From positions 1 to 7,947 of the IMG/VR virus record IMGVR_UViG_2713896907_000004: a stretch of DNA of 7,947 bases; one strand, given 5' to 3'. Shown piece by piece: positions 1 to 7,947 of this stretch. Numbering within the stretch: position 1 is the first letter of the stretch; each line of letters starts with the position of its first letter. The notes under the pieces were generated by a model. That model was not told the origin of the DNA, did not search any database, and saw only the letters and a program-made list of their open reading frames with translations. The translations under genes were made by a program, and so were the position numbers. The DNA is from a virus (taxonomy: Duplodnaviria; Heunggongvirae; Uroviricota; Caudoviricetes).

Positions 1-230
1 CACGGCCTGATATTGCTGTACGGTGGGTTATTCCAGATTGCACCGTGGCTTACCCACTCAGAATTGAGCGCGTCGTCGGCCTCAGTTAGCCAGTGAGCGC
101 ACAGAGCATTTTTGTCGCTCGCAGCTGAATCCAGCCAGAATCCAAACTCAATATCCAGCGCATCAAAAAGCCAGAGCGGCGTTTGCCAGCAGTCCTTGTC
201 GTGTGATGGCGTATTTGATTTGATAGTCAT
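1..230 (-). CDS. dam: Phage DNA N-6-adenine methyltransferase (Dam family), N-terminal part; gene runs off the window start
   Basis: Minus-strand ORF starting at ATG 230, overlapping the ninB TGA stop (ATGA junction). Hand translation: MTIKSNTPSHDKDCWQTPLWLFDALDIEFGFWLDSAASDKNALCAHWLTEADDALNSEWVSHGAIWNNPPYSNIRP, no stop before position 1. NPPY catalytic tetrapeptide and overall N-terminus resemble phage Dam methyltransferases (recalled, not searched). Confidence 0.7.
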   Translation of the reverse strand, partial: MTIKSNTPSHDKDCWQTPLWLFDALDIEFGFWLDSAASDKNALCAHWLTEADDALNSEWVSHGAIWNNPPYSNIRP

Positions 231-673
231 GCAGCCCTACCTTTTCGTTGTGACCATTCATACTCTCGCCAGGAGTCATCACTCCACCGCACGTTGCGCT
301 CTGAGCCGAACCAGAACATGATTTCGATAAGCTCAGTCATGCTGGCCTTCCGCATTTTGCTGGTACGCACGCCAAGCATGGCAACGCCACCGTCGATACC
401 AGGCACACTTCGTTGCTCCAGTTTTTTGGTCTTAAGCCACAGGGCAGTGAACAGGTCTTTCCAGTCTTCCGGCGCCAGCCGTTGACCATGCCATAGCACC
501 TGACGCGAAACATCGTTCAGCATCGGCCACATACGGTCATTCTGCGCTTTGCTGCGCTTGGGTTCTTTAACGTGGACTTCGTGGGGTGACTTGTCGTCGA
601 TGGGTAGTGAGAGAATGGCGTCTATGGCGTTATTTCTGATTGCTTCGTTGCGAAGCAGAAAGGTTTGCTTCAT
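227..673 (-). CDS. ninB: NinB-like recombination protein (lambda NinB/Orf family)
   Basis: Part of track ORF 227..775(-). Start placed at internal Met 35 (ATG at 673), preceded by GGAG. Product MKQTFLLRNEAI...WHGQRLAPEDWKDLFTALW...RNVRWSDDSWREYEWSQRKGRAA recalls lambda NinB in length and in the DVSRQV.WHG and WSD motifs. Confidence 0.85.
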   Translation of the reverse strand: MKQTFLLRNEAIRNNAIDAILSLPIDDKSPHEVHVKEPKRSKAQNDRMWPMLNDVSRQVLWHGQRLAPEDWKDLFTALWLKTKKLEQRSVPGIDGGVAMLGVRTSKMRKASMTELIEIMFWFGSERNVRWSDDSWREYEWSQRKGRAA

Positions 674-866
674 CTCCTGCTCTCCGGTTCCATTTTTCAG
701 CCGCCGCAGCAACTGATGGTGCCCATGCCCCCCTGGCTTCACAGAGGTCACATTCTGCATAGCCCCACACATCAATATTTATTCCGGCCTCACCCCACAG
801 ACGACCATTACCGCCGCAAAACGGACATTCTTTTAGCTTTGGCTGGGTTAATGATAGGTCGCTCAT
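630..866 (-). CDS. lar: Lar-family restriction alleviation protein (zinc-ribbon CPFCGG type)
   Basis: Internal start of track ORF 630..1073(-) at Met 70 (ATG at 866), preceded by AAGGAG at about 5 nt. Product MSDLSLTQPKLKECPFCGGNGRLW...ECDLCEARGAWAPSVAAAAEKWNRRAGDE has the CPFCGG ... C..C ... AxxxWNRR pattern of the Lar family. 3' end overlaps the ninB start by 44 nt in another frame. Confidence 0.7.
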   Translation of the reverse strand: MSDLSLTQPKLKECPFCGGNGRLWGEAGINIDVWGYAECDLCEARGAWAPSVAAAAEKWNRRAGDEANLSASQRSNQK

Positions 867-876
867 GCTCACTCCT

Positions 877-1092
877 TCACTTAAAATCCAGACTCCGGAT
901 AATTCTGTTGCGCTGAAACTCATTGTTGAGTTTGAACAACCGTCGAAGAACACGGTCACGCGGATAGCGTCGTGCGGCAGGTGAATGCTCATACAACTCA
1001 TCAAGCGGCAAACTTGACGATGAACGATACCGATACCAACGCACCAACTCTTCACGAAAATTAGCCCTGACAAGCTCAGCTATCGTACTCAT
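877..1092 (-). CDS. Hypothetical Arg-rich small protein (71 aa), first gene after the tR2-like terminator
   Basis: Track ORF 877..1092(-). GGAGGA about 8 nt upstream of the ATG at 1092. Its TGA stop lies inside the lar RBS. No recognisable family. Confidence 0.55.
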   Translation of the reverse strand: MSTIAELVRANFREELVRWYRYRSSSSLPLDELYEHSPAARRYPRDRVLRRLFKLNNEFQRNRIIRSLDFK

Positions 1093-1120
1093 TTCTTAAA
1101 TCCTCCAATTACTCTCCCCC

Positions 1121-1152
1121 AAATAAAAAGGCCTGCGATTACCAGCAGGCCT
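1121..1152 (-). terminator. Rho-independent terminator after the helicase gene (tR2-equivalent position)
   Basis: Minus-strand RNA reads AGGCCUGC-ugguaauc-GCAGGCCU followed by UUUUAUUU. Perfect 8-bp GC-rich stem (1129-1136 / 1145-1152) with the T-tract at 1121-1128. Sits about 28 nt downstream of the helicase stop. Confidence 0.65.
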
Positions 1153-1180
1153 GTTATTAGCTCAGTGATGTAGATGGTCA

Positions 1181-2617
1181 TCAGAATCCTCCTTTCTTCT
1201 TGGACTGCGGTTCCTCGCGTTCACGGCGGCGCATTTCAGCAGACTGTTGGTCTGTGTCATAAATAGCGCCATTTGCCTGTATGCAATACACCGTGCCGGT
1301 ATTGCCATGACGATTGAGGCGAAGGATTAGTTCGGTTTCACCAGGAGGAACGCTGTCATCAAAAGCACCTTCACGATGGATCCCCACCCAATAATCGCAA
1401 TCCTGTTCAATCTGCCCTGTATCTCGTGAGTCACTTGGTAATGGGCGTTTATTGGTTCGGCTTTCCAGTGCGCGGTTAAGCTGTGTCAGAAGCACAACAA
1501 CGCAATCAAGCTCTTTGGCAAGGTTCTTCAGTCCTTTGGTGATCATGCCGTAAGCAAGGTCGTTGCGATCGGCCTTTTCAGCGGTCATTAGTGTCAGGTA
1601 ATCGACCAGAATCATGCCAACACATCCTTTTTCTCGCTTGATTCGACGGCTTTCGCTGACGATTTGAGCCAGAGATAATCCCGGCGTGTCGTCGATGTAA
1701 AGCAGGTCGATTTCACTCAAGCGATTGGCTGTCTCGATCGCCCTGTTGAAGTCACCATCGTAATCACCCTGATAGCCGTCATCAGCGTCATTTGTCGCCG
1801 GAAGGTAAAAAATATTCGGGTTCACACCTGACTTCTGCCCTACCAGTTTTTCCAGTATCTGGTCACCTGGCATTTCAAGGCTGAACATCAGAGCGGGCTT
1901 TTTCTCATGCACTGCGCAGTTGATTGCCATCTGGCTGTATAGCGTCGTTTTCCCCATCTTAGGGCGAGCGCCAATGACAAACAGAGAGCCTTTCACCAGA
2001 CCTTTCGGTGACAGCATCCTGTCCAGCGATGGGATCCCTGTGCTCATTCCTCGTTGTTCGCCTGACGGGTCAAATCGCTTCTCAAGGTCGCTAACCCAGT
2101 CTTCCATGACCTCACCAAATGAGCGAAGGCCGCGACGCGATCCGGTTTTTGCATGGTCTGTCAGTTGCGTGAAAATCGACTGAATAGCTTCGTACTTCTG
2201 CGTTGCAGTCATTCCGTTGCGGGAATAGAGCAATTCCGTCGCTTCAGTCATGCGGTTGATGGCGTAGCGTTCCATTGCGGTTTCGCGAACCTGCATTGCA
2301 TAAGCAACGATGTTTGCTGCGCTTGGCGTGTTCTTTGCGATCTCAGCGATATAAGCAAAACCGCCAACAGACGCCGTTAACGATTTACGCTCCAGTTCAT
2401 CGAAAAGCGTCAGGCCATCTACTGGCTTTTGCTCACGGTGCATTCTGGTTATTTCTTCGAAAATGATTTTGTGTGGCCGGCTGTAAAATGAATCAGGCTT
2501 CAGCATCGCCAGAACCTTCTGGACGCGCTCACTGCTGTCATCATCCAGAAGCAATCCACCAATCACCGCCTGCTCTGCCTCGATGCTATGGGGCGGCGCA
2601 TAAAAATTATCGGTCAT
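1181..2617 (-). CDS. dnaB: DnaB-family replicative DNA helicase (phage-encoded, P22 gene 12-like)
   Basis: Track ORF 1181..2632(-). Start chosen at ATG 2617 ([25 protein letters not shown], preceded by GAGGGTG); the track Met at 2632 is the alternative. Classic DnaB N-terminus and Walker A GARPKMGKTT. Start overlaps the upstream gene's stop (ATGACCGATAA). Confidence 0.9.
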   Translation of the reverse strand: MTDNFYAPPHSIEAEQAVIGGLLLDDDSSERVQKVLAMLKPDSFYSRPHKIIFEEITRMHREQKPVDGLTLFDELERKSLTASVGGFAYIAEIAKNTPSAANIVAYAMQVRETAMERYAINRMTEATELLYSRNGMTATQKYEAIQSIFTQLTDHAKTGSRRGLRSFGEVMEDWVSDLEKRFDPSGEQRGMSTGIPSLDRMLSPKGLVKGSLFVIGARPKMGKTTLYSQMAINCAVHEKKPALMFSLEMPGDQILEKLVGQKSGVNPNIFYLPATNDADDGYQGDYDGDFNRAIETANRLSEIDLLYIDDTPGLSLAQIVSESRRIKREKGCVGMILVDYLTLMTAEKADRNDLAYGMITKGLKNLAKELDCVVVLLTQLNRALESRTNKRPLPSDSRDTGQIEQDCDYWVGIHREGAFDDSVPPGETELILRLNRHGNTGTVYCIQANGAIYDTDQQSAEMRRREREEPQSKKKGGF

Positions 2618-3506
2618 CGTGTTCACCCTCACGAACTTTCAGGTAGGTATTGTCGTTAAGCAGGAAATCAAATCCCTTTTTGTGCCAGACGGTTCCGCGC
2701 TGATGGTTTGGGCGCTCTTCGAACATCCATCGGCAATTTTCGCCTACGTAGCTCAAATAATTTCTCCAGTCCTGCATCGTGAACCCATGCCCGTCAAGCT
2801 GGCGGGTTATCACTCCGGCTTTGCGCCAGAACGTTCGGATCTGGTTTTTACGCTTGTCATTCAGTGCGCGGATTCTTGGCGCTTCAGGAAGGATTTCGTG
2901 GTAAGCATCGACAACATCCTGACAGCTGACGGGAGGTTTTTTCTTGTCAGACTTTTTGTCTGCTGTGGCACTCTCTAATACGTCAGTATTAGAGATAATA
3001 TTATTATATTCTTTATCTGTGGTAATTTGCTGGTAATCTGCTGGTACAGTATTGCTTACAGGCATTGGTATTGCTGGCTTTGAGGTGGTAATTTGCTGGT
3101 AATCTGCTGGTACAAAATTTGACTGATAATCGTCATATTTCTCTACCGAGAAAACTGAGAATTTACCGTGTGAAACCCAGTCAATCATGCCGAGTTTTTT
3201 GAACTTTCTAAGCAGGTACTGAACGCGATCTGGTTTGAGTCCTGTTTCAAACGCCAGAGAGTTTCTACCGCCAAGTAGCTTCCCTCTGCCTACCAGAATT
3301 TCTCCTGCGTCAGTCATTACATACTCAGGCGTATGCTTTGCTTTGAGGATTAAGTGAACCCACAGATGCGCTGCTTCTGCGTCCTTGTAAAACGGCACAT
3401 CCATAATTTTACGGTGCAGCAAGGCATACCCCTTACCGCTGCTTTGATGCGGTTGTTGTAGCCTTCTGGCCTCTCTGGCTTCGGCTAGATTAGATATGTT
3501 ACTCAT
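2607..3506 (-). CDS. Replication initiation protein (lambda O / P22 gp18 analogue)
   Basis: Track ORF 2607..3506(-). AAGGAG 7 nt upstream of the ATG at 3506. N-terminal winged-helix-like region, a central linker carrying the duplicated peptide [10 protein letters not shown], and a C-terminus resembling the conserved phage replication-protein C-terminal domain. Sits immediately upstream of the helicase. Confidence 0.8.
2972..3113. other. Putative origin of replication inside the initiator gene: AT-rich palindrome plus iteron-like direct repeats
   Basis: Two identical 29-bp direct repeats (3019-3047 and 3085-3113, gtggtaatttgctggtaatctgctggtac), each with GCTGGTAAT sub-repeats at about 11-bp spacing. 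Adjacent AT-rich stretch 2972-3016 holds a perfect 10-bp inverted repeat, tctctaatac-gtca-gtattagaga (2972-2995). Layout matches lambda ori inside O. Confidence 0.5.
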
Positions 3507-3645
3507 GACCTTTCTCCTTCTGCATCAGCTTCACTTTTTCCAACTCAGCCCGGAATCGACAAGGCTGCTTGAAGCTGGACAGGAAGCGATCACGTAGTAT
3601 GTGTTTGTGAATTTTGTCCTGGTAAGGACTGAGTTGTTTTGTCAT
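3499..3645 (-). CDS. Small hypothetical protein (48 aa) between cII and the initiator gene
   Basis: Not in the supplied track (too short). Hand translation from ATG 3645: [53 protein letters not shown] 7 nt upstream. Stop overlaps the initiator start (ATGAGTAA). Confidence 0.4.
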
Positions 3646-3654
3646 AATGACTCC

Positions 3655-3731
3655 TGTGGATTGATCCAGTAATTACCTCAGAACTCCATCTGGATTTGTT
3701 CAGAACGCTCGGTTGCCGCCGGGCGTTTTTT
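3655..3731 (+). ncRNA. oop: oop-like antisense RNA candidate (about 77 nt, antisense to the cII 3' end)
   Basis: Plus-strand extended -10 TGtCATAAT at 3640-3648 in the cII/initiator intergenic region, with a strong intrinsic terminator about 77 nt downstream inside the cII 3' end. Geometry as for lambda OOP. Start site is inferred, not observed. Confidence 0.4.
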
Positions 3732-3974
3732 ATTGGTTAGTCCATCAAGCGCATACTTAAAAGCCCTGCTAATCGGACTGATGTCTGATGCCATTCCAAA
3801 AGCACACAGAACCGAAGCAATAAATCTCCAGTCCGTTCTGCTTATCTTCGATTCATGACAGCCAATCATCTTTGCCAGACCGCGCTGGGTAAGCGTTGAC
3901 AGGTTGATAAGTAAATCTGTTTCTGCGCGATCAACGTCGCGCTGTGATAGTTTGCTGTAACTTGTTTGTTCCAT
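3678..3974 (-). CDS. cII: CII transcriptional activator (lambda CII family)
   Basis: Track ORF 3678..3974(-), 98 aa. C-terminal LTNKKRPAATERSEQIQMEF matches the lambda CII C-terminus as recalled. HTH-like ESKISRTDWRF in the middle. Sits between cro and the replication genes. Confidence 0.9.
   Translation of the reverse strand: MEQTSYSKLSQRDVDRAETDLLINLSTLTQRGLAKMIGCHESKISRTDWRFIASVLCAFGMASDISPISRAFKYALDGLTNKKRPAATERSEQIQMEF
3704..3731 (+). terminator. Rho-independent terminator on the strand antisense to cII
   Basis: Stem cgctcgg (3706-3712) / ccgggcg (3719-3725) with one G-U pair, 6-nt loop, extendable by two A-T pairs, followed by TTTTTTATT. Confidence 0.6.
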
Positions 3975-3984
3975 TTCTTACTAT
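3952..3984 (+). promoter_or_regulatory. PRE-like CII-dependent promoter candidate (TTGC-N6-TTGT at the cII start)
   Basis: Plus strand TTGC (3952-3955) - tgtaac - TTGT (3962-3965) overlapping the cII start region, with TACTAT at 3979-3984. Resembles lambda PRE TTGC-N6-TTGC and would point through cro antisense toward cI. Confidence 0.3.
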
Positions 3985-4008
3985 TTCCATAGTTAAATAA
4001 TCACTAAT

Positions 4009-4026
4009 ACTCATCTTTCGATGAGT
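4009..4026 (-). terminator. tR1-position hairpin between nutR and cII
   Basis: Minus-strand RNA ACUCAUC-GAAA-GAUGAGU, a perfect 7-bp stem with GAAA tetraloop, followed by an AU-rich tail AUUAGUGAUUAUUU. Weak intrinsic terminator or processing site. Confidence 0.35.
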
Positions 4027-4038
4027 GCTTAATTAGTT

Positions 4039-4073
4039 ACCGCGTTGTCGGCGGTGCAGATTGATAAAGAGCG
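4039..4073 (-). promoter_or_regulatory. nutR: boxA plus P22-type boxB
   Basis: Minus strand just downstream of the cro stop: boxA-like CGCTCTTTA (plus 4065-4073), then boxB hairpin ACCGCCGACAACGCGGU (plus 4039-4055). Matches the P22 nutR boxB as recalled. Confidence 0.6.
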
Positions 4074-4080
4074 ATGTTAC

Positions 4081-4308
4081 TTATGCAGCCAGAAGGTTCT
4101 TTTTGCTTATTTCAAGCATTTCGCTTGCTTGATATTTGCCACCAGAAATCTCTTCGATTTTTGATGCATATTTCGTTTTCCCAAAAAACTCAGTCTTAGG
4201 GAGGAAGCCGTTTTTAAGCCACTTATAGACAGCCCTTTCGCTAACTCCACAAGCCTTCGCAACTTCAGGGATGCCGACACCTTTAATCGGCTCATCAAGA
4301 TTTTGCAT
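4081..4308 (-). CDS. cro: Cro-like HTH regulator (first gene of the PR operon)
   Basis: Track ORF 4081..4341(-). Start chosen at internal ATG 4308 (MQNLDEPIKGVGIPEVAKACGVSERAVYKWLKNGFLP...), which has AAAAAGGG 8 nt upstream. The track ATG at 4341 falls inside the predicted PR -10. HTH motif present; divergent from cI. Confidence 0.7.
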   Translation of the reverse strand: MQNLDEPIKGVGIPEVAKACGVSERAVYKWLKNGFLPKTEFFGKTKYASKIEEISGGKYQASEMLEISKKNLLAA

Positions 4309-4320
4309 AGGAATACCCTT

Positions 4321-4393
4321 TTTCGTACTTTCAGTACGCATTATGATTGAACTGAAAGTTTTTGCAAGTGCTTTAGTATCGTACTCATGGTTC
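4321..4393. promoter_or_regulatory. OR-like operator/promoter region (PR leftward, PRM rightward)
   Basis: Minus-strand PR: -35 TTGCAA (plus 4362-4367), 16-bp spacer, -10 CATAAT (plus 4340-4345). Operator-like sites: cgtACTttcAGTacg palindrome (4324-4338), gaACTgaaAGTt (4349-4360), weaker taTCGTACtc (4377-4386). Possible PRM -10 TAGTAT (4374-4379) ends 7 nt before the cI ATG, which lacks a Shine-Dalgarno. Confidence 0.5.
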
Positions 4394-5094
4394 AGAATGA
4401 AAAAGTGCGCAAAGAATTCGCCCAGCGGCTAGCGCAAGCCTGTAAAGAAGCTGGTCTTGATGAACATGGTAGGGGGATGGCCATAGCCCGTGCCCTTTCT
4501 CTTTCGTCCAAAGGCGTTAGCAAATGGTTTAATGCTGAGTCTTTACCGCGTCAGGAAAAAATGAATGCGCTTGCGAAATTTCTAAACGTTGATGTTGTTT
4601 GGCTTCAGCACGGCACTTCGTTAAATGGAGCGAATGATGAAGATACTCTTTCATTTGTTGGCAAATTAAAAAAAGGGTTAGTGCGCGTGGTTGGTGAGGC
4701 AATTCTTGGTGTTGATGGTGCCATCGAGATGACCGAAGAGCGCGATGGGTGGCTCAAGATTTATAGCGATGATCCAGATGCCTTTGGTCTTCGTGTGAAA
4801 GGAGACAGCATGTGGCCCAGAATAAAATCAGGAGAATATGTACTCATTGAGCCTAACACCAAAGTATTCCCGGGTGATGAGGTGTTTGTCAGAACCGTTG
4901 AAGGACACAACATGATTAAGGTTCTTGGCTATGACAGAGATGGAGAATACCAATTTACAAGCATTAACCAGGACCACAGGCCTATAACGTTGCCTTATCA
5001 TCAAGTAGCAAAGGTGGAGTATGTGGCTGGTATTCTGAAGCAATCTCGTCATCTGGATGACATCGAGGCAAGGGAGTGGCTGAAAAATTCGTGA
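4387..5094 (+). CDS. cI: CI-like prophage repressor (N-terminal HTH, C-terminal S24 LexA-like peptidase)
   Basis: Track ORF 4387..5094(+), 235 aa. HTH near the N-terminus (GMAIARALSLSSKGVSKWFN). C-terminal GDSMWP serine motif and downstream Lys (NMIKVLG) typical of the S24 autocleavage domain. Divergent from cro with the operator region between. Confidence 0.9.
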   Translation: MVQNEKVRKEFAQRLAQACKEAGLDEHGRGMAIARALSLSSKGVSKWFNAESLPRQEKMNALAKFLNVDVVWLQHGTSLNGANDEDTLSFVGKLKKGLVRVVGEAILGVDGAIEMTEERDGWLKIYSDDPDAFGLRVKGDSMWPRIKSGEYVLIEPNTKVFPGDEVFVRTVEGHNMIKVLGYDRDGEYQFTSINQDHRPITLPYHQVAKVEYVAGILKQSRHLDDIEAREWLKNS

Positions 5095-5170
5095 CTTCAT
5101 CGTCACATAGCTGGTAACCAGTGGCCTGAAGAGACGTTTGGGTGATAGGAATGGATGTTAAGGATTAAGA

Positions 5171-6217
5171 ATGTCAGCGATTGATCAACCTGCGCAATAT
5201 GTTATCAAGTCAGAAGACGACTTTGTATCTTTTGTAACAGAAATGCTCGGAAGGAAGGATATCGACTCAAGCGACTTCACATTCCCTAGCGTAGTTTTCA
5301 GTGGATGGCCAAAGATCAATATTAATGTAAAAGGCGATCCAAATAGATATAATTCTTCATTGACTGCGTCAATGCTTTTTGGTATGGCAGAGCTTACGCA
5401 TGAAATACAAAAAGCATTTACGGTAGTCAGTCACAGCACTCATAATCGGCAGAAGCTAAAAGATGCAGAGAAAGGTTTGCTGGATATTGTCTACCGAATA
5501 AGCGAAGGCTCAAGCCAAGCGGATGGTGACTCAGATCCGATTGTAAACGGAGTGGTGACAGTGTTAACTCAAGCGATAGGCAAAATGACAGGAAGGCAAG
5601 CACTATGCGCCGTCGCCGCTATCGTCTTAGCTGCCAGCACGGTAGGCTATAAGTGGATCAATGAGTACTACGAAACACAGCGACATGACCAAGATTCTCA
5701 GGTGCAATTGGTGGAAAAAAGCACCAAAGCGGTAAACGAAGCACAAGACAATGTGCTCAAGTTGTTGATTAGCGGTCAAACAAACATTAGCAGAGAGGTT
5801 CTGGCTCACGGCGAGGATGGTAAAAGCAAGTTGCTTAAAAAGCTTGCTCAAGACTCGTCAGTTGAGAAGGTAACAATTGGTCAGAGAGTGGTAAATAGAG
5901 AACAGTTGAATACCTTAAACCAAAGGCAATCAATTGATCGAAAAAAGGAAACCAGAAGAGATAACTTTTATGTCACGGGCGTTCGTCGCTCGGGAGAAAC
6001 AAATCAGGACATAAATATTGACGTCACAAGGGTTTCAAATGGTGAATCTTTCACCATAAAAACCTCAGCCGACATAACATCTACTGATGAGCTTCTTGAG
6101 TTTTTGAATGCTGTAGCCAAAGAATCAACTGTTGAAATTTCATACCTAGAGGTTGTAGAAAATGGACACATTTCAACAGGACAATTGATAAATATATTCC
6201 CCAGCGAACCAGAGTGA
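5171..6217 (+). CDS. Hypothetical membrane protein (348 aa) in the rexAB-equivalent slot; candidate exclusion/defence moron
   Basis: Track ORF 5171..6217(+). AAGGA 6 nt upstream of the ATG. Same strand as cI, 76 bp downstream, with no terminator between. Visibly AT-richer than neighbours. One central hydrophobic segment (ALCAVAAIVLAASTVGY) and a charged Q/K/E-rich C-terminal half. No family recognised. Terminator follows. Confidence 0.8.
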   Translation: MSAIDQPAQYVIKSEDDFVSFVTEMLGRKDIDSSDFTFPSVVFSGWPKININVKGDPNRYNSSLTASMLFGMAELTHEIQKAFTVVSHSTHNRQKLKDAEKGLLDIVYRISEGSSQADGDSDPIVNGVVTVLTQAIGKMTGRQALCAVAAIVLAASTVGYKWINEYYETQRHDQDSQVQLVEKSTKAVNEAQDNVLKLLISGQTNISREVLAHGEDGKSKLLKKLAQDSSVEKVTIGQRVVNREQLNTLNQRQSIDRKKETRRDNFYVTGVRRSGETNQDINIDVTRVSNGESFTIKTSADITSTDELLEFLNAVAKESTVEISYLEVVENGHISTGQLINIFPSEPE

Positions 6218-6225
6218 TGCACTCC

Positions 6226-6254
6226 AAACCCGGCCTCAGCGCCGGGTTTTCTTT
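6226..6254 (+). terminator. Rho-independent terminator after the 348-aa gene
   Basis: Stem aaacccggc (6226-6234) / gccgggttt (6241-6249) with loop ctcagc, followed by TTTTCTTT (6247-6254). Begins 9 nt after the TGA stop. Confidence 0.7.
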
Positions 6255-6354
6255 GCCTCACGTTCGCCCTCCCATATTTAATAGCCGCAAATGTGGTAAA
6301 CCGCGAACCAACTCACCAGCAATACCCCCTCCAACTACAGACCAATCTGCAGCA

Positions 6355-6382
6355 TTTACAAAAATAAATTTCCTTATATATC
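6355..6382 (+). promoter_or_regulatory. Near-consensus sigma70-like promoter candidate in the AT-rich spacer upstream of OL
   Basis: -35 TTTACA (6355-6360), 16-bp spacer, -10 TATATA (6377-6382), plus strand, pointing toward nutL and N. Confidence 0.35.
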
Positions 6383-6418
6383 AAAATTATATCTCGCTGC
6401 ATTAATAAATCACAAAAA

Positions 6419-6464
6419 TTTCGTACCAATAGTTCTTGATAATATCGAACTATTGGTTCATTAT
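6419..6464 (+). promoter_or_regulatory. OL/PL-like region: operator motifs co-linear with OR plus a PL candidate
   Basis: TTTCGTACcaatAGTtC (6419-6435) and GAACTattgGTT (6447-6458) match the OR motifs TTTCGTACtttcAGTaC and GAACTgaaaGTT in the same order with near-identical spacing. 11-bp perfect inverted repeat accaatagttc / gaactattggt (6425-6435 / 6447-6457). PL candidate: -35 TTGATA (6436-6441), 17-bp spacer, -10 CATTAT (6459-6464). Confidence 0.45.
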
Positions 6465-6510
6465 TGTCACATCAGCAGGACGCTGGAAGCCAAACGGAAC
6501 AGATTGGCAG

Positions 6511-6544
6511 GCTCTTTAACTTCGATGGGGCGCTGACAAAGCGC
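6511..6544 (+). promoter_or_regulatory. nutL: boxA plus P22-type boxB
   Basis: boxA-like GCTCTTTAAC (6511-6520), then boxB hairpin GCGCTGACAAAGCGC (6530-6544), which is the P22 nutL boxB as recalled. Upstream of the N-like gene. Confidence 0.7.
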
Positions 6545-6572
6545 AAACAGATACCAAACGAGATGGGTTTGG

Positions 6573-6655
6573 CGGTGTGTAGCTCAGCAGGTAGAGCGGA
6601 TTCGTTGGCTAAGCCGTGGAATCGCGTCACCAGTTCAAGTATGGTCACACCACCA
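6573..6655 (+). other. tRNA-like element, non-canonical (degenerate tRNA remnant or structured N-leader RNA)
   Basis: Strong D-arm signature TA-GCTC-AGCAGGTA-GAGC. T-arm-like ACCAG-TTCAAGT-ATGGT with a G53/A61 mismatch. Acceptor cggtgtg/cacacca pairs 6 of 7. The anticodon stem gattc/gaatc encloses a 15-nt loop rather than 7. CCA follows at 6653-6655. Confidence 0.3.
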
Positions 6656-6681
6656 AAGCCATTTCACATGGAGAAAAGAAA

Positions 6682-6801
6682 ATGCTGGAAATTATCACCA
6701 ACCCAATTCTCGGTGGGGCAATCATCACTTTCGCAATCGGCATCGGATTCACTATCTGGTCTGAAGTAGATGACTGGATGTGGGAGCGCAAAAACAAATA
6801 A
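6682..6801 (+). CDS. Small hydrophobic peptide (39 aa, single predicted TM helix) in the N leader
   Basis: ATG at 6682 with GGAG 8 nt upstream. Product MLEIITNPILGGAIITFAIGIGFTIWSEVDDWMWERKNK: hydrophobic core then a charged Trp-rich tail. Inside the longer track ORF 6616..6801. Lies between nutL and N. Confidence 0.4.
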   Translation: MLEIITNPILGGAIITFAIGIGFTIWSEVDDWMWERKNK

Positions 6802-6841
6802 TAATCGACACACATTCATGTGTGTCTTCACGGAGGTCATC

Positions 6842-7150
6842 ATGACGGTTATCGTATACGGAAAATCAACATTTGCAGGAAATGCCAAAACTCGCCGTCA
6901 TGAGCGGCGCAGAAAGCTGGCTATCGAGCGTGATTCCATCTGCAACATCATCGATTCGATCTTCGGCACAGACAGTGAGGAAGCTGTTCAGGAAGAACCG
7001 AGAAAGCGTTTAAGCCTTTCTGAAAAAGCAATATCACTCGGCATCATTAGTAAATCAAATACAGATGCGAATGGCGGAAGCGTTTGCCTGCCCGAAGTTG
7101 CACTGTATGCTGCTGGTTACAGGTCAATGAAATCAATTACGGCGAGATAG
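6842..7150 (+). CDS. N: N-like transcription antiterminator (P22 gene 24 type, arginine-rich motif)
   Basis: Internal start of track ORF 6770..7150 at Met 25 (ATG 6842), with GGAGG 5 nt upstream. N-terminus MTVIVYGKSTFAGNAKTRRHERRRKLAIERD carries the arginine-rich boxB-binding motif of P22 N as recalled. Cognate boxB present in both nutL and nutR. Confidence 0.85.
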   Translation: MTVIVYGKSTFAGNAKTRRHERRRKLAIERDSICNIIDSIFGTDSEEAVQEEPRKRLSLSEKAISLGIISKSNTDANGGSVCLPEVALYAAGYRSMKSITAR

Positions 7151-7152
7151 AA

Positions 7153-7419
7153 ATGACTAGCAAACAAGTATCATATAAATGCTATTGCCCTTTATGTGGA
7201 AGAAAATTCAGCGCCAAGGCAGCATGGAAGCATATCAATGATTATCATCCAAAAGCATCAGAACGTGAGTTGATGATGATAAGAGATGTAAAACGAGAAA
7301 AAATTTCTTTCGCAACAAAGCCACTAAACGCCAACAAAAACGCAATATTGTATCAAATGCATCGTTCAAGTGGTCCAGATTATTCTGGAGGGCTTCCATC
7401 TCTTGGAAAGAAAAAATAA
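7153..7419 (+). CDS. Hypothetical small protein with a Cys2-His-type zinc-binding motif (89 aa)
   Basis: Internal start of track ORF 7084..7419 at Met 24 (ATG 7153), immediately after the N stop. Weak RBS (GAGATAGAA). Motif CYCPLCGRKF...HINDYH. No family recognised. Confidence 0.5.
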   Translation: MTSKQVSYKCYCPLCGRKFSAKAAWKHINDYHPKASERELMMIRDVKREKISFATKPLNANKNAILYQMHRSSGPDYSGGLPSLGKKK

Positions 7420-7552
7420 CCACGCTCATGCTGGTTTTTAATGACATAAATAACCCTATTTACTACCGCAAGCCACGCAGTGAAATGGGTGTGACTTGTG
7501 TTGGTCGCCAGAAAATGAAATTAGGCAGCAAACCACTTATTTGAGGTGATAT

Positions 7553-7639
7553 ATGGAAGAAGAATTTGAAGAGTTCGAAGAGCATCCGCAGGATGTGATG
7601 GAACAATACCAGGACTATCCGTATGACTACGACTATTGA
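7553..7639 (+). CDS. Very small acidic peptide (28 aa), possibly coupled to the next ORF
   Basis: ATG 7553 with GAGGTGA 4 nt upstream. Hand translation MEEEFEEFEEHPQDVMEQYQDYPYDYDY. Overlaps the start of the next ORF by 17 nt. Could be coding or only a coupling leader. Confidence 0.3.
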   Translation: MEEEFEEFEEHPQDVMEQYQDYPYDYDY

Positions 7640-7823
7640 TAAAAATCAATGGTGTGGACAATTCAAACGATGCAATGGATGCAAGCTGCAATCGGAATGC
7701 ATGGTTAAGCCTGAAGAAATGTTTCCTGTAATGGAAGATGGGAAATATGTCGATAAATGGGCAATACGAACTACGGCAATGATTGCCAGAGAACTTGGTA
7801 AACAGAAAAACAAGGCTGCCTGA
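7623..7823 (+). CDS. Hypothetical Cys-rich small protein (66 aa, CxxxxxCxxCxxxxxC)
   Basis: Track ORF 7623..7823(+). Start overlaps the preceding acidic ORF. Four Cys in CGQFKRCNGCKLQSEC suggest a zinc ribbon. Followed by a terminator. Confidence 0.5.
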   Translation: MTTTIDKNQWCGQFKRCNGCKLQSECMVKPEEMFPVMEDGKYVDKWAIRTTAMIARELGKQKNKAA

Positions 7824-7842
7824 TGGTGGCCTTTATTTTTGG
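7813..7842 (+). terminator. Rho-independent terminator after the N-downstream small genes
   Basis: Stem aggctgcc (7813-7820) / ggtggcct (7825-7832) with two G-U pairs, loop tgat (contains the TGA stop), followed by TTATTTTTGG. Confidence 0.5.
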
Positions 7843-7947
7843 CATAAACAACAGAATAAACACAGCACTGTGTATTCATTCCAACGAGTGAATACACGGA
7901 GCAATGTCGCTCGTAACCAAACAGGAGCCGACTTGTTCTGATTATTG

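Follow-up and report, generated by a model that had tools for sequence, protein, structure and literature searches.

We analysed a stretch of viral DNA of 7,947 nt (the window; positions 1–7,947 of the IMG/VR record IMGVR_UViG_2713896907_000004, Caudoviricetes), which its gene content and the signals read on its plus strand identify as a lambdoid immunity region. The leader of its early pL operon carries, between the nutL site and the antiterminator gene N, a tRNA-like structured element followed by an open reading frame (ORF) of 39 codons. An earlier note, made from the letters of the window only, had described a near-tRNA with a good D arm, a T-arm-like hairpin, a partly paired acceptor with CCA and a 15-nt loop, as well as a small ORF with a ribosome-binding site, a single hydrophobic span and a charged Trp-rich tail; both descriptions were accurate, at 6573–6652 and 6682–6801 respectively. 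The leader comprises the following features, where SD denotes a Shine–Dalgarno sequence and MFE the minimum free energy fold.

6436–6464, plus strand: pL promoter, TTGATA-17-CATTAT, located by a promoter scan.
+1 at ~6471, plus strand: start of the pL transcript, AUCAGCAGG, the 5′ end common to lambdoid pL leaders (lambda, P22 and others).
6511–6519, plus strand: nutL boxA, GCUCUUUAA.
6530–6544, plus strand: nutL boxB hairpin of the P22 type, GCGCUGACAAAGCGC, identical to that of the P22 record, which has nutL annotated.
6560–6572, plus strand: 5′ arm of the outer (base) helix, GAGAUGGGUUUGG, pairing with 6653–6665 in both the MFE and the cloverleaf fold and homologous to lambda GCUUUGGGGUGUGUG.
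6573–6652, plus strand: tRNA-like apical domain, from its cloverleaf layout and from the tRNA-OTHER annotated by PGAP at the equivalent place in Escherichia coli AR_0058.
6573–6579, plus strand: 5′ strand of the acceptor, CGGUGUG.
6582–6597, plus strand: canonical D arm, GCUC-AGCAGGUA-GAGC.
6599–6623, plus strand: extended arm in place of the anticodon arm, with the stem GAUUC/GAAUC.
6624–6628, plus strand: variable loop of 5 nt, GCGUC.
6629–6645, plus strand: T arm, ACCAG-UUCAAGU-AUGGU.
6646–6652, plus strand: 3′ strand of the acceptor, CACACCA, after which CCA follows.
6653–6665, plus strand: 3′ arm of the outer helix, CCAAAGCCAUUUC, separated from the first SD by a few bases.
6670–6673, plus strand: SD of the 39-codon ORF, GGAG, from comparison of the window with the phage P6, P22 and Stx2a leaders.
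6682–6801, plus strand: 39-codon ORF, a single-pass membrane protein of PHROG 7482, from a profile match, homologues and the ratio of nonsynonymous to synonymous substitution rates (dN/dS).
6807–6826, plus strand: hairpin GACACACA-UUCA-UGUGUGUC between the ORF stop and the SD of N, present in all ORF-bearing loci.
6832–6836, plus strand: SD of N, GGAGG.
6842–7150, plus strand: N antiterminator gene of the P22 gp24 type (PHROG 271, E = 1.6e-36).

The hairpin formed by positions 6560–6665 lies between boxB (6530–6544) and the first SD (6670), and an alignment of leaders matched the ‘acceptor stem’ of the element together with its flanking arms to the stem of the lambda N leader. The lambda leader reads GCUUUGG-GGUGUGUG ... 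CACACACC-A-CCAAAGC, and the tRNA-like loci read GCUUUGG-GGUGUG-(tRNA body)-CACACC-A-CCAAAGC, the bulged A being common to both. All 11 leaders that were folded displayed the same order, i.e. a 5′ hairpin, boxA, boxB and then a long base helix, interrupted by a one-base bulge or mismatch, inside which sat a branched apical domain ranging from 25 to ~250 nt and unrelated between types (lambda, P22, SE1Spa/ST64T, Stx2a/ev087, L002, L003, L040, L054, L055 and tRNA-like). As far as sequence comparison goes, homology of the base helix and modularity of the leader are established. No credible Rfam family was found for the lambda, P22, SE1Spa, ev087, L002, L003, L040, L053, L054 or L055 cassettes.

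Cassette frequencies were taken from the best 80 IMG/VR loci with a P22-type N (L066–L145). About 63 of these 80 carry one and the same 62-nt cassette, CGGUGAUGUGAAUUGC...GCGCAUCACCA, common to Stx2a-converting phages, in which 8 of 60 sites segregate against 12 of the 21 fourfold sites of the adjacent N. By our estimate this Stx2a-type cassette is approximately threefold more conserved than those fourfold sites, a constraint less tight than that on the core of the tRNA-like element (see below). Another leader (L054, 1150–1345) contains an apical cassette of ~170 nt with a T-arm-like motif, GGCGGGUUCGAUUCUCGCU, for which neither ARAGORN nor Rfam makes a call and which may be a second, more remote tRNA-related payload.

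The tRNA-like domain of the window displays U8 and A9 between the 5′ strand of the acceptor and the D arm, and a 15-nt insert (6604–6618) stands where the 7-nt anticodon loop would be. Its acceptor consists of six pairs plus a C·A mismatch (1:72) or bulged A instead of a canonical 7-bp stem, and the 3′ CCA is paired with the UGG of the outer helix, being neither free nor preceded by a proper discriminator. At −46.4 kcal/mol (z = −4.8), the fold of the 111-nt stretch has a stability reached by none of 200 shuffled sequences. In most of the relatives that were folded (L001, L009, L016 and L058) the MFE is an exact cloverleaf atop the 13-bp outer helix, and the cloverleaf comes within 0.2 kcal/mol of the MFE in L008 and within 2.1 in phage P6 (L004). 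The relatives' acceptor of 6 bp plus mismatch, T stem of 5 bp and UUCAAGY loop make up a coaxial acceptor/T stack of ~12 bp capped by the T loop. A substitution specific to the window, the A at 6641 (tRNA position 61), breaks the pair G53–C61.

ARAGORN found 0 tRNA genes in the window, and Rfam gave no tRNA match at E ≤ 10 on the window copy, even with 121 nt. The copy in E. coli AR_0058 (L001), one base apart within the element (C for the A at 6641), scored 38.2 bits with the Rfam tRNA model RF00005 (gathering score 29 bits), is called a tRNA by ARAGORN and is annotated by PGAP as tRNA-OTHER at exactly the corresponding coordinates; L008 likewise exceeded the gathering score (34.8 bits). ARAGORN and Rfam, two of the detectors that the earlier note had recommended, were negative on the copy for which they had been proposed and positive on relatives, and they appear to miss the window copy because the single A61 substitution breaks G53–C61. 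The tRNA-shaped cassette also explains the recurrent ‘tRNA-OTHER’ annotation in prophages. Lacking an anticodon loop, a 1:72 pair and a proper discriminator-CCA, the element is not a tRNA that decodes; its tRNA shape is under constraint and would serve as a structural and processing module, in line with the non-canonical character already ascribed to it. An intron-containing tRNA was discarded since the insert is variable and unconstrained, and a remnant of an attP or integration site was discarded on account of its wrong genomic position.

Two exact-pattern scans, each built on an independent half of the element, agreed on one set of 21 IMG/VR loci. A pattern scan of metagenomes added one real locus (L058) besides a false match in GC-rich coding DNA (L057), and two scans of genome contigs yielded 0 matches and then 7 in unrelated organisms, the latter without a tRNA call and judged to be chance. 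The 27 fetched loci, which take in L058, L032/L033 (repeat retrievals of the same contigs), phage P6 (L004), AR_0058 (L001) and the window, represent 10 distinct sequences of the element. In all 10 the nucleotides U8, A14, G15, G18, G19, A21, G26, C48, T54, T55, C56 and A58 are invariant, and the elbow including G53–C61 is kept across the family with the window copy (A61) as the sole exception. Changes sit at positions 16, 57, 59 and 60, which are also variable in real tRNAs, and in the 15-nt anticodon substitute; the T-stem pair 52:62 shows a compensatory double change from A-U to G-C, and two single-locus changes (position 43 in L008 and A61 in the window) are uncompensated.

Among the 18 Salmonella-type loci, 1 of 66 sites segregates in the tRNA core, against 9 of 24 fourfold sites in the adjacent N and 4 of 15 sites in the anticodon substitute. 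Since each scan fixed one half of the element and left the other unconstrained, core conservation is not simply a product of ascertainment. The tRNA core is thus shown to be under purifying selection, with the anticodon substitute drifting at a neutral rate. The element is kept before at least four different N/boxB types and is also found in leaders whose nutL and N cannot be aligned to those of the window (L008, with boxB and N of the lambda type, L016 and L058). The notion of a decayed tRNA, raised in the earlier note, applies to the window copy to the extent of one damaging substitution and fails for the family as a whole, which is under purifying selection.

The ORF at 6682–6801 encodes MLEIITNPILGGAIITFAIGIGFTIWSEVDDWMWERKNK, with one hydrophobic span (an uncharged stretch of 23 residues) followed by a charged Trp-rich tail. 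It matched PHROG 7482 over its full length (residues 1–39; E = 1e-22, 80.7 bits), while Pfam and NCBIfam gave nothing above threshold. A tblastn search of phage genomes returned no match, probably owing to the low-complexity filter and the short query, as PHROGs and IMG/VR did find the family. A search of 1.8 billion representative proteins gave only five matches, indicating that the family is narrow, and very large protein sets contain no more than a handful of its clusters. The 25 IMG/VR loci and the window together hold 12 distinct nucleotide sequences of the ORF, which always lies directly upstream of N (as it does in the E. coli genomes) and has its own SD in each copy. It precedes at least five N types, follows at least five apical cassettes and occurs in 31 of 5426 complete E. 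coli genomes. Pairwise dN/dS is 0.05–0.25 with synonymous divergence up to saturation, and the motifs TNPILGG and DDWMWERKNK are nearly invariant. The 39-codon ORF is a real gene under purifying selection, and the PHROG match, the conservation before at least five N types and the comparison of synonymous with nonsynonymous changes dispose of the possibility of a chance ORF that the earlier note had left standing.

The stems of the hairpin that follows the ORF covary (ACACA/UGUGU, GCACA/UGUGC and GCGCC/GGCGC). Sequestration of the SD of N by this hairpin (6807–6826) was rejected, given that the SD lies outside it. Read on the minus strand (6826–6807), the same hairpin is followed by a T-run, the complement of the KNK-stop codons, and scores as an intrinsic terminator for antisense transcription from the N side. 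In leaders without the ORF, N starts ~20 nt past the leader hairpin and uses an SD at the same place, from which it follows that the ORF cassette took over that hairpin-proximal SD and brought a second one for N. Module 2 (6670–6836) would accordingly be an inserted cassette made up of an SD, the membrane-protein gene, the conserved hairpin and a new SD for N. As the ORF holds the hairpin-proximal SD, its product would be the first protein made from pL, and it probably has an early, membrane-located accessory function. Other small genes occupy the same slot: in ST64T (L030, 543–725) a basic ORF of 60 codons lies between the leader hairpin and N, and in L054 (1362–1500) an extra ORF of ~46 codons lies ahead of the 39-codon gene, giving two ORFs. 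The slot between hairpin and N is apparently a hotspot where small genes insert.

Salmonella phage P6 and ~18 Salmonella prophage contigs carry the tRNA-like element but not the 39-codon ORF, and most ORF loci lack the tRNA-like element; the two are not one system. We interpret the leader as two independent modules, an exchangeable tRNA-shaped tip on a processing hairpin of the N leader (presumably cut by RNase III and possibly by RNase P) and a small-protein gene cassette, a reading to which we assign a probability of roughly 0.55. Module 1 is the lambdoid N-leader hairpin at 6560–6665, in which a conserved base helix surrounds an exchangeable apical domain, in this lineage a tRNA-shaped RNA whose acceptor stem forms the upper part of the base helix and which keeps all the nucleotides for the tRNA elbow and the acceptor/T-arm stack. 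The hairpin is predicted to fold once nutL has been transcribed, RNase III would cut the base helix as in lambda, and RNase P may, in addition or instead, be guided by the tRNA-like shape to the junction between G6572 and C6573. Such a cut would part the downstream message from nutL, which would stay bound to the N-modified polymerase; this parting would set the translation efficiency of the first cistron, and cleavage would free a discrete tRNA-like RNA of ~80 nt. We infer the cuts by RNase III or RNase P, the freeing of the RNA and the effect on translation from what is known of related leaders and substrates.

Steege et al. (1987), as cited in PMC5371410, is the source there for the lambda N leader being a target of RNase III. 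The suggestion in the earlier note that the element might serve processing or stability fits its position, inside a stem homologous to that of lambda; the part of it that concerns cleavage would apply to the window by homology. The lambda cuts we take to fall at ~+88 and ~+197, in this stem, and if so the homologous 5′ cut in the window would presumably separate G6572 from C6573, which is position 1 of the tRNA-like domain. The same bond, 12 bp from the T loop, is also the one that RNase P would be predicted to pick. Cleavage reportedly lifts N-mediated repression of N translation, a result said to go back to Kameyama in 1991 and to Wilson in 1997 and 2002. Nut sites have been described as consisting of boxA, boxB and boxC, and the boxC of rrn operons (UCUGUGUGGG) is part of the 5′ strand of the RNase III leader-trailer helix round 16S rRNA (PMC10250234). 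Positions 6560–6572 and 6573–6579 of the window likewise form a GU-rich, boxC-like strand, and by analogy this GU-rich 5′ arm looks like the rrn arrangement in miniature. M3 RNA and the C4 antisense RNA, both from phages, are among the known substrates of RNase P, as are tRNA-like structures (PMC11143913).

RNA sequencing during P22 infection has revealed a 96-nt RNA, P22B, which ends 16 nt before the AUG of gene 24 (PMC13397905). It maps to positions 423–518 of P22 (L028), onto the apical domain and 3′ arm of the gene 24 leader hairpin, and covers the 3′ two-thirds of the cassette that P22 itself carries; its 3′ end maps to the position equivalent to the foot of the 3′ arm in the window (6653–6665). 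P22B derives from the equivalent hairpin, and RNA of this hairpin can therefore accumulate. PMC13397905 does not connect P22B with the RNase III hairpin of the lambda N leader.

Several observations weigh against the processing-hairpin interpretation. P22B represents another cassette, and its ends, the 5′ one within the apical domain and the 3′ one at the helix foot, are unlike those of a simple lambda-type RNase III product. Substrates of RNase P normally have a free 5′ leader and 3′ trailer, and in every predicted fold the two flanks of the tRNA-like domain pair with each other as the 13-bp outer helix, so that RNase P would need a prior cut to act on the primary transcript. For the tRNA-like cassette itself, cleavage and RNA release are inferred by analogy. 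In the window the MFE is a rod-like fold (−46.2 kcal/mol), slightly below the cloverleaf (−45.0), a narrow advantage that it owes to A61. Covariation, one half of a check proposed in the earlier note, is thin, the double change affecting 1 of 23 pairs and most pairs never varying; the other half, conservation, came out more strongly (1/66 in the core). The tRNA-like part is also rare, being present in 2 of 5426 complete E. coli genomes and in 3 of the ~71 loci that could be parsed among the best 80 with a P22-type N. Lastly, the L055 leader has only a ~25-nt apical hairpin; some leaders thus manage with very little, and N expression does not depend on any one apical domain.

One alternative is a neutral origin of the tRNA shape, in which a captured fragment of a tRNA gene persists as a stable fold that spares the base helix and has no function of its own. 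We consider this possible, if on balance doubtful. Apical cassettes swap freely and share no sequence relationship, one type measuring only ~25 nt, the tRNA-like allele is rare, the window copy carries a T-stem-breaking substitution and is missed by tRNA detectors, and the tip of the anticodon-arm substitute drifts at a neutral rate, all of which a mere filler would explain. It would not explain why the tRNA core is about tenfold less variable than the adjacent fourfold sites (1/66 versus 9/24) and tighter than the common 62-nt cassette (8/60 segregating), nor why variation outside the anticodon substitute falls mainly at tRNA-variable positions or is compensated (position 43 in L008 and A61 in the window excepted), nor why the nucleotides of tertiary contacts are all invariant across leaders with otherwise unalignable nutL and N. 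Another alternative is a working tRNA that decodes with an unusual or intron-containing anticodon arm, which we find barely conceivable. ARAGORN calls relatives tRNA-Pro or tRNA-Ala, and relatives exceed the Rfam tRNA gathering score and are tRNA-OTHER to PGAP; but the called anticodon (tgg, ggg, agg or ggc) changes among near-identical copies, within a stretch that evolves neutrally, and must therefore be an artefact. A 15-nt insert in place of a 7-nt loop, a C·A mismatch or bulged A at 1:72 and a 3′ CCA paired in the outer helix without a proper discriminator equally speak against decoding, as does the search for a parent tRNA, in which the best real tRNAs were only ~72–74% identical and of mixed isotypes, and no parent could be named.

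A function in trans would be compatible with the constraint on the core. The excised, anticodon-less RNA might bind or titrate a host factor that recognizes tRNAs (a defence or modification enzyme, or the CCA-adding enzyme) early in infection, and this would suit the conservation of the full elbow and acceptor/T stack with a dispensable anticodon, the position of the element within the first 200 nt of the immediate-early pL transcript and the stable RNA of the equivalent P22 cassette that accumulates in infection (PMC13397905). We nonetheless regard such a mimic as quite unlikely, as the element is rare, unrelated cassettes occupy the same place elsewhere, which would make the role allele-specific, and no proper CCA end is encoded. 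A broader version, rather unlikely in our view, is that N leaders in general are miniature rRNA leader-trailer systems, in which the polymerase-tethered nutL (boxA, boxB and the boxC-like strand) would chaperone swappable RNA payloads and then release them via RNase III; by analogy the tRNA-shaped payload would be a trans-acting mimic (a decoy or regulator of a tRNA-recognizing host enzyme) and the other cassettes a hidden repertoire of small RNAs. The earlier note had also linked structured RNA and peptide in a type I toxin-like locus, where the hydrophobic peptide would be a membrane toxin and the upstream structured RNA would control its translation or stability. A single-pass hydrophobic peptide of 39 residues whose strong SD directly follows a very stable structure, and which is conserved without an assigned function, does invite this idea. 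Against it, inheritance of the peptide gene is independent of that of the tRNA-like element, the structure is the hairpin common to N leaders and is there with or without the ORF, and the gene lies in sense within the pL operon, always just before N, with no stand-alone toxin/antisense pair. No minus-strand sigma-70-like promoter was detected over or beside the ORF (6650–7200), which, the scan having been for consensus only, is a weak negative. As each module is found without the other and the scan showed no such promoter, a toxin-like locus is not supported and we consider it very improbable, although the peptide may have some membrane activity.

The two-module interpretation sets the window beside several known systems. 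The lambda N-leader hairpin is placed in the same way, past boxB and with its end a few bases short of the first SD, and shares the leader architecture and a near-identical base helix including the bulged A. It differs in its unrelated apical domain of 95 nt, where the window has a tRNA cloverleaf of 80 nt, and in that the first cistron past the hairpin is N instead of the 39-codon ORF; cleavage, moreover, is for the window a prediction. The rrn leader-trailer helix, a putative analogue, shares with the window boxA, then a GU-rich boxC-like strand that pairs downstream, and a long helix round a structured RNA, which in rrn is excised (PMC10250234). Its payload is the 1.5-kb 16S rRNA, against ~80 nt in the window, where boxB stands between boxA and the boxC-like strand and the N protein is involved. 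In the P1/P7 C4 precursor, phi80 M3 RNA, the tRNA-like domain of tmRNA and the tRNA-like structures of plant viruses, all of them reported as tRNA-like substrates of RNase P (PMC11143913) and the first two phage-borne, the acceptor/T arm is likewise mimicked without decoding. The window element differs from these in having a complete D arm and elbow and in its ends being buried in a long helix, and its cleavage by RNase P is putative; similarity to their sequences did not emerge, no search aimed at it having been made. P22B comes from the equivalent hairpin in the P22 gene 24 leader and stops at the foot of the 3′ arm, whereas the apical cassette of P22 is unrelated in sequence and not tRNA-like. 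The 39-residue protein is an ordinary member of PHROG 7482, from which it differs in nothing.

The lambda N leader is the classic model for control of translation by RNase III and for nut-site function. Its base helix turns out to be conserved across lambdoid phages, with the tip a swap site for unrelated structured RNAs, one of which is a selectively maintained tRNA shape. The apical domains might control how fast processing goes, attract RNase P or, once released, work as small RNAs in the manner of P22B, and the 39-residue protein, if it is the first pL product, is a candidate immediate-early host-interaction factor. We found no paper that ties a tRNA-like element to lambdoid N leaders, the sole ‘tRNA-like’ mention, in the genome paper of phage L, concerning attP.

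The genes and signals on either side of this leader complete the immunity region.

4387–5094, plus strand: cI-type repressor gene.
5171–6217, plus strand: gene of 348 codons, PHROG 6191.
~6225–6250, plus strand: terminator hairpin.
7153–7419, plus strand: ORF of 88 codons, PHROG 20899.
7623–7823, plus strand: ral.

The N protein of the window contains the arginine-rich motif GNAKTRRHERRRKLAIER. The 348-codon gene (5171–6217) fills the slot of rexAB, from the repressor gene to pL, with the terminator hairpin then following at ~6225–6250, and is likely a lysogen-expressed accessory or exclusion gene. The product of the 88-codon ORF (7153–7419) displays a classical C2H2 zinc-finger pattern (CPLC-x12-H-x4-H), which is unusual in an early-left gene of a phage. 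A short ORF at 7428–7544 encodes IYYRKPRSEMGVTCVGRQK (window 7440–7545), matching the C-terminal end of a different N allele (locus L003), and by this sequence match looks like a remnant of mosaic recombination, with the junction lying downstream of the N gene now present.

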